Below are positions 1,988 through 2,954 of a stretch of 20,000 nt of DNA, piece by piece. The position numbers and the translations under genes were made by a program. The notes beneath the pieces were generated by a model. It ran no database searches and was not told the DNA's origin. It saw only the letters and a list, made by a program, of their open reading frames with translations. The stretch is from assembly GCA_910592345.1 (NCBI GenBank), contig CAJVPI010000027.1:57638-77637 (forward strand), in the 5' to 3' direction. The DNA comes from Paraglomus brasilianum (lineage: Eukaryota). Each line of letters begins with the position of its first letter. The stretch's first letter is position 1.

Positions 1988-2954
1988 ATGTCAGTCCATA
2001 ATATAACACTTTCTCTCTCTTCCCCGCTCAGTATGTCTGTATTCTACTCGACTGTCTCCCAATCACTGAGCAATGCACCCATAGCATATGCAGCTACTCC
2101 CCTAAACAGTTCTACTGCCGTCGAATCCACAAACCTATGTCCTGGGAAACGAGCAAGAGAACTAGAACAAGGGGAGACAGAAAGACATTACGCTGGAATT
2201 ACTCACGCTAGGGATATAGTAACTGAAAGTACCAGCATAGCAGCAGACGGGAGAGAATTCAAGAGACTAAGACGTGCCTTCGAGAGGGACAGTTTGAGGT
2301 GAGATCGCGGGGGTTAGGGTGCGAGATCCCATTCACACCTCGTTCGCAACATGGAGAAAAACGCGTTTTATCACCATCGCCTAGTTCTAGCATCCGAAAA
2401 AAAAAAGTATTCTCTGAAATAATTCAAAAAAATATATACATACATATAATGTTGATTCAGAATTTTCATATGATGTCTCATCTAGTCCAGAATCGAATTC
2501 TTCCATAGCAACACCGCTTTCGTACTCACCGCCAGCGACAGATTCTCTTACCGAAGATGGCAATGATAGCAGGAACGATTATTATCGACACCAACAATTA
2601 TCCATTACTTCTGTAACTACTACTGCCCAGCAAAGAAGCTCTAATAAGAAACATCTTATGCGAATTTCCACTCGCTCCAATCCTTCCGCTTCGACGACGT
2701 CATCGTCGTCGTCGTTGCCAAGTCCGTACGACAATATCAATACTATTCTCCATCTTGCTCACCTTGCACGGCATTCGCATGTTGTTAATGAGCTAGAAGG
2801 AGATTTAGGTGAGATGGAGATTGATGAATCACCTGTCGGAGTAAGATTGATGGAAACTCCAAGAGAAATTGCAGACAACCACTGCAACTATGCACGGATC
2901 AATGCTGTCTTACGAGAAGCATTTTTAAGGAGAAGGAATAGCAACTCTGATTGA
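1988..2954 (+). CDS. Uncharacterised Ser/Thr-rich 259-aa protein with two Y-x-x-I-N-x-[IV]-L-x-x-A-[HF]-L-x-R helices (FAM104/VCF-like). Exons 1988-2298 and 2486-2954.
   Basis: A GTGAGA donor at 2299 and a TAG acceptor ending at 2485 join the 104-aa and 98-aa ORFs in frame (780 nt, no internal stop). Basic clusters GKRAR and KRLRR are present. The start could instead be the second ATG at 2033. Confidence 0.75.

Follow-up and report, generated by a model that had tools for sequence, protein, structure and literature searches.

The FAM104 proteins VCF1 and VCF2 (PF15434) have, according to the available text of PMC10541173, a common layout that consists of an N-terminal cNLS, a variable unstructured middle and a conserved C-terminal helix. 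Within this helix the VCF1 residues Y184, N188, L191 and H195 have been modelled as contacts of the cleft in the p97 N-domain (PMC10541173), and the N, the L and the H (H174, which is the same residue as H195) were each found to be essential for binding by human VCF1 in the accessible part of PMC10950897. A search with the helix by the authors of the eLife article yielded no fungal members, and in the sections available the family is called absent from fungi (PMC10541173); the same authors speculate that VCF proteins make up for a bipartite NLS that Cdc48 itself has lost. The short VIM and VBM helices of, e.g., SVIP and ataxin-3 bind in the N-domain cleft that is also the binding site of the VRM but, as far as the accessible literature text goes, depend mainly on arginines. 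A layout of cargo site, linker and NLS is also a general design of import adaptors such as AKIRIN2, HAPSTR1, Sts1/Cut8 and FAM172A, among which there is no mutual sequence homology (PMC12979645, part of the text available).

For a fungal VCF protein or a tandem VRM no report was found in listings of the open-access literature. The window, by which we mean the whole stretch of 20,000 nucleotides from Paraglomus brasilianum that was analysed (contig CAJVPI010000027.1), carries the gene of a Glomeromycota protein that we consider moderately likely to be a VCF1/FAM104-like nuclear Cdc48/p97 adaptor, judging from its sequence, a structural model and the analogy with VCF1.

The gene and its product

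The gene lies on the plus strand and is composed of two coding exons, one from the ATG at 1988 to 2298 (aa 1–103), recognized as an ORF, in the gene model and in contigs spanning 2005–2298, and one from 2486 through the stop codon at 2954, recognized likewise as an ORF, in contigs and in the gene model. Between them is an intron of 187 bases with GT..AG ends (2299–2485), and exactly these positions are missing from the contigs of three of four runs (X1, X4 and X5), of which X4 and X5 are recorded as RNA runs. The 259-aa product claimed in the first-pass annotation is borne out by this ATG and by the skipped intron. In a second set of four runs no contig spans the joint between exon 1 and exon 2. 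Since the upstream basic patches sit in an ORF of their own (1988–2302) and the motifs in a different one, the 259-aa product requires the intron. The gene is real, expressed and spliced. The start codon is either the ATG at 1988 or a second in-frame ATG at 2033, which would give a product of 244 aa; a contig over 2005–2242, from a run guessed to be RNA, includes the stretch 5' of the latter.

The translation of 2727–2774 is YDNINTILHLAHLARH (copy 1) and that of 2889–2936, in the same frame, is YARINAVLREAFLRRR (copy 2). Translation therefore confirms both coordinates of what had been annotated as two copies of one motif; both copies are present, but they are unequal, with His in copy 1 only and Phe in copy 2. 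The first motif, extended to 2780 and here called helix 1, reads Y-x-x-I-N-x-x-L-x-L-A-[H/N]-L-x-R-x-S-H and is VRM-like. In the window it has all four of the VCF1 key residues (Y, N, L and H), and at the positions of VCF1's R and E it has the hydrophobic residues Y and L. The second, C-terminal one (helix 2, 2889–2936) reads Y-x-x-I-N-x-[VIM]-L-[RK]-[ED]-A-F-L-x-R and is likewise VRM-like; in the window it has Y, N and L plus I, R, E and A, with Phe where VCF1 has His.

Helix 1 is located within a longer conserved block of approximately 55 residues. On its 5' side there is a RISTRS motif (2661–2678; mean identity 97% in alignment A2) and on its 3' side an acidic motif, E-L-x-x-D-L-G-x-M-[ED]-I-D-E (2790–2828), with a segment identity of 0.74 and with E, G, M, I and D invariant in A2, followed by a disordered variable spacer (2829–2888; identity 0.13) that leads to helix 2. 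The basic patches that had been placed upstream of the motifs were found there as KRAR at aa 54–57 (2147–2158) and KRLRR at aa 92–96 (2261–2275), both predicted to be monopartite NLSs. Orthologues with KRxR near the N-terminus correspond to the first, and the second corresponds to the K[KR]MRL of the orthologues, although the alignment is weak (hhalign E 0.055). When the window protein was shuffled in 200,000 rounds, one Y..IN..L...[HF] was obtained in 19 of them and two in none, in a test that is biased in favour because the pattern was taken from the two motifs themselves. Of the allelic changes seen in contigs, 4 of 5 within the helices are silent and 3 of 9 in the stretch between; these counts were given no weight, as most of the changes stem from a single contig of low depth.

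AlphaFold2, applied to exon 2 on an alignment of 19 rows, yielded mainly coil with helices at exon-2 residues 84–95 and 97–104 (together 84–104) and at 132–152; helix 1 is helical in the model. The model has a pTM of 0.21, a pLDDT below 50 at 65 of 155 residues and no confident folded core; helix 2 is its best-predicted element (block pLDDT 73–86). The window protein is thus predicted by this model to be largely disordered with two helices. A sequence search of the PDB gave no matches, and the structure matches in the ESM Atlas, all with a TM of 0.40 or lower, were disregarded.

Three other genes were seen in the window. Convergent with the two-helix gene, on the minus strand at 4031–4438, is an exon of a gene from the ribosomal protein L6 family (Pfam E 3e-16), likely that of eukaryotic L9. 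A KHDC4/BBP-like KH-domain gene with several exons and a proline- and tyrosine-rich tail is located at 10745–12253 on the plus strand. On the same strand at 16298–17909 a pheromone receptor of the STE3 type is encoded in two ORFs that overlap; the Pfam model is matched by one ORF and then by the other in successive segments (E 7e-45 and 1e-19), and the split is probably due to an intron.

Conservation of the motifs across Glomeromycota

A phmmer search of 1.84 billion representatives with the C-terminal 81 aa as the query resulted in 10 matches, 7 of which are orthologues; the other three (P0001, P0009 and P0010) are tandem-repeat proteins that lack the motifs and were dropped as unrelated. 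The orthologues with a name come from Geosiphon, Glomus cerebriforme, Funneliformis, Gigaspora and Acaulospora and are listed as hypothetical proteins. A profile search found 20 proteins, adding Rhizophagus, Cetraspora, Racocetra and Ambispora; all the named ones are from Glomeromycota, and an animal FAM104 protein was absent among the 20. A word-indexed search with exon 2 residues 74–155 gave three candidates and no match, and of 599 pattern matches at metagenome loci none was confirmed. The window protein, which is long-branched in a 16-row tree, falls there into a supported group whose other members are from Geosiphon and Ambispora, together with one JGI protein.

The family set comprises 25 sequences, with helix 1 in 24, helix 2 in 24 and both in 23, the two exceptions being partial sequences. 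It should be noted that the set includes near-duplicates (four Gigaspora-cluster sequences and two forms from R. irregularis), so that the counts overstate independence, and that the pattern used for extracting the helices demanded Y, I, N and L, which all sequences long enough for a helix matched. Among the 24 copies of helix 1 the residues Y1, I4, N5, L8, L10, A11, L13, R15, S17 and H18 are invariant, and among the 24 copies of helix 2 Y1, I4, N5, L8, A11, F12, L13 and R15; R9 is present in 23 of the latter and E/D10 in all 24. The Y/IN/L/A positions, whose loss in orthologues would have spoken against the first-pass annotation, were thus retained in all 24 copies of helix 1 and all 24 of helix 2, including the equivalents of the VCF1 key residues Y184, N188 and L191. 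Position 12 of helix 1 is Asn in 19 copies and His in 5; the carriers of the His, i.e., the window protein, Geosiphon, both Ambispora sequences and the one JGI protein, form one supported group.

Helix 2 begins 18–26 residues before the C-terminus in 24 of the 25 sequences. The distance from motif to motif ranges from 54 to 101 aa, the window having the shortest (54 aa). Outside the motifs identity is 0.13–0.18 (13% in the final part of the spacer), and the RISTRS and acidic M[ED]ID motifs that flank helix 1 are as conserved across Glomeromycota as the helices themselves. K[KR]x[KR] occurs in 18 of 24 orthologues, in 12 of them twice, and the other 6 are without the N-terminal part. Both motifs, like the basic clusters, are therefore conserved throughout the phylum Glomeromycota. 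When position-specific matrices of the two helices were scored against each other, 12–23 bits were obtained (per-site P of the order of 1e-5 to 1e-8), which is consistent with an internal duplication that would predate the split of these lineages.

Relation to the FAM104/VCF family

As judged from sequence and model, the layout of the Glomeromycota protein matches that of FAM104/VCF1-2: it is small and largely disordered, with NLS-like basic clusters near the N-terminus (by sequence pattern, K[KR]x[KR] at aa 54 and 92), an unstructured variable middle and a conserved C-terminal helix (the latter two by AlphaFold2 and the family alignment). The helix has the Y-x3-N-x2-L of VCF1, with I, R, E and A at matching positions. 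The VCF consensus and architecture given in the first-pass annotation agree with what is described in the accessible parts of PMC10541173 and PMC10950897.

There are differences as well. The Glomeromycota protein has two copies of the motif, whereas VCF has one, and it has the RISTRS and acidic M[ED]ID motifs in addition. Moreover, it is fungal, its Pfam scores lie under the cut-off (see below) and its binding of Cdc48 is putative. A further difference concerns the essential histidine of VCF1 (H195 = H174): all 24 copies of helix 2 have Phe in its place and 19 of the 24 copies of helix 1 have Asn, so that most orthologues have a His in neither helix. This replacement of the VRM histidine, in every helix 2 and in most helices 1, had been overlooked in the first-pass annotation. 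Because of the missing His in the C-terminal helix and because of the Pfam cut-off, the Glomeromycota protein is not filed under FAM104.

In Pfam, FAM104 was the top family for the C-terminal 81 aa of the window protein (E 0.0052), for its exon 2 (E 0.0017) and for an Ambispora orthologue, P0026 (E 0.002). Among 23 family sequences scanned (P0013 and P0022 were left out), 2 matched PF15434, the best score being 19.3 bits as compared with the curated cut-off of 27 bits. How such values should be read is indicated by metagenome sequences selected with the motif. A strict animal-type DNA pattern had four matches, one of which (L004) resembles an animal FAM104 exon; it scored 21.6 bits and is also under the cut-off, which must for this reason be considered a strict test. 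PF15434 may miss divergent FAM104 members. On the other hand, L002, likewise selected by pattern and in a frame that looks non-coding, scored 17.9 bits (E 0.0047). Since a non-coding-looking frame comes near the scores of the family while L004 stays below the cut-off, the Pfam score shows the motif and not membership. Of the similarity to FAM104 put forward in the first-pass annotation a profile-level resemblance stands, below every threshold. L004 itself (365–820, minus strand) appears as an animal-like last exon of FAM104 with a His/Gln-rich disordered region. In a viral collection an exact Y..IN..LREAHF was seen mid-protein in an open frame of 471 or more aa on a 428-kb contig (L003 and L007); this match is probably due to chance.

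In the ESM Atlas, a search with the orthologue from G. cerebriforme (P0004) placed unnamed clusters at the top, from Mucoromycota (0.90, perhaps that of the query itself), from Oomycota (0.85) and from Basidiomycota (0.84). Among the named families FAM104 came first, with an arthropod cluster at rank 10 (27% of members) and a score of 0.75, which is below the bar of 0.9 set for a lead, and the FAM104 family or clan was common to 9 of the 10 best named matches. With the segment from the window Mucoromycota, Oomycota and Basidiomycota were found again, and FAM104 was not among the matches listed. Some of the unnamed clusters resemble the family in their features, namely those of 160 and 193 aa from Basidiomycota, of 174 aa from Mucoromycota and of 127 aa from Oomycota.

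How often such a protein is expected by chance can be estimated roughly and after the fact. A proteome of 25,000 genes should by this estimate contain about 0.005 matches of the level of helix 2 within the last 30 residues, and about 6e-7 that are accompanied by a second Y..IN..L..A site. The bare four-residue pattern is expected, again roughly, about 29 times; because it is so common, the case is based on position, conservation and architecture jointly. We infer common descent of the Glomeromycota protein and FAM104.

A putative role as Cdc48 adaptor

If the Glomeromycota protein functions as proposed, its basic clusters would bind importin, the disordered body would be the tether and one or both of the Y-x3-N-x2-L helices would sit in the N-domain cleft of Cdc48. 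Like VCF1/2, the adaptor would carry Cdc48 into the nucleus or hold it there, increasing nuclear Cdc48, and by analogy with VCF1 it would aid Cdc48-Ufd1-Npl4 on nuclear substrates. In combining a presumed cargo-binding region with a linker that is long and flexible and with an NLS, it resembles AKIRIN2, HAPSTR1, Sts1/Cut8 and FAM172A, from which it differs in its cargo, presumably Cdc48. We infer both Cdc48 binding and nuclear import from the following. Helix 2 agrees with the VCF1 peptide given in the available text of PMC10541173 at Y, I, N, L, R, E and A, and Y, N and L, which are invariant in both helices, are three of the four VCF1 residues modelled there to touch p97. On the side of the partner, the cleft tyrosines Y138 and Y143 of p97, which are named in the VCF papers, are invariant in 62 of 62 aligned Cdc48s, all of them non-fungal.

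Helix 2, being C-terminal and having kept L-R-E-A, would be the likelier main Cdc48 site, and helix 1 a second, weaker one, in which case avidity may offset the lost histidine. For VCF1, 2–3 molecules per hexamer have been seen. Adjacent N-domains of the Cdc48 hexamer are approximately 7–8 nm apart. With the shortest motif spacing, that of the window, approximately 35 residues remain between the helices, which is long enough for binding with two hands. That both helices do bind Cdc48 in this manner is plausible, but we hold it only tentatively. The loss of His from both helices in most lineages fits avidity, another partner, or a Cdc48 site combined with one site of another kind equally well. 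Of similarly low probability is the wider proposal that VCF-type adaptors are ancient, that those of Glomeromycota place two His-weakened helices on two N-domains of the hexamer and that the unnamed Atlas clusters are further members.

Also rather doubtful, and overlapping with the adaptor proposal, of which it is a sub-case, is that helix 2 alone binds Cdc48 and that helix 1 together with the RISTRS and acidic motifs is a module which recruits a substrate, a kinase or a second cofactor. The protein would then be a bridge instead of two-handed. The location of helix 1 inside the conserved block of approximately 55 residues and the replacement of R/E by Y/L point in this direction and may indicate another partner for helix 1. 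A profile comparison with L004 aligns helix 2 (E 6e-5) and would favour the same, although the match is circular since L004 was chosen by the motif. Against this, in helix 1 none of Y, I, N, L and A varies and no other copy bears a His, and the cross-scores of 12–23 bits point to sites of the same type.

Less probable still is that the helices bind a different nuclear partner, e.g., a corepressor, a ligase or a chaperone surface, and that their likeness to the VRM is due to convergence of short amphipathic helices. This would explain why the His is gone from all helices 2 and most helices 1, why the FAM104 scores in Pfam and Atlas remain under the respective bars, why unrelated frames and a large viral protein have the motif too, and why there are conserved motifs in addition that are not described in the available text of PMC10541173 and PMC10950897. 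However, the invariant positions correspond to the contact residues of VCF1 and share one face of the helix (at angles of 0, 40, 340 and 20 degrees), the C-terminal placement and the NLS/disorder layout match VCF, and FAM104 was the first-named family in two library-wide searches (Pfam and ESM Atlas). In the four members compared with the VIM, VBM and SHP patterns, neither an arginine-centred VIM or VBM nor a SHP box was present. That the two helices pack together or dimerize as a small structural module with no role for Cdc48 is very unlikely, for although helix 1 is fairly hydrophobic (mean 0.08–0.15), the AlphaFold2 model with its low pTM has no confident core, the motif spacing varies almost twofold and the PDB search was blank.

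If the Glomeromycota protein is indeed a nuclear Cdc48 adaptor, such a phylum-wide fungal counterpart would overturn the reported absence of the VCF family from fungi and would make the speculation on NLS compensation testable. The tandem helices with their natural His-to-Phe and His-to-Asn changes would be a series from which the rules of VRM binding and of avidity on the hexamer could be deduced, and a testable function would be at hand for a hypothetical protein that is conserved throughout the arbuscular mycorrhizal fungi.

Finally, a full, intronless Cdc48/p97 of the stramenopile type was observed in the viral collection, at 94–2460 of a sequence labelled as a giant-virus MAG (L001); it may be host contamination.
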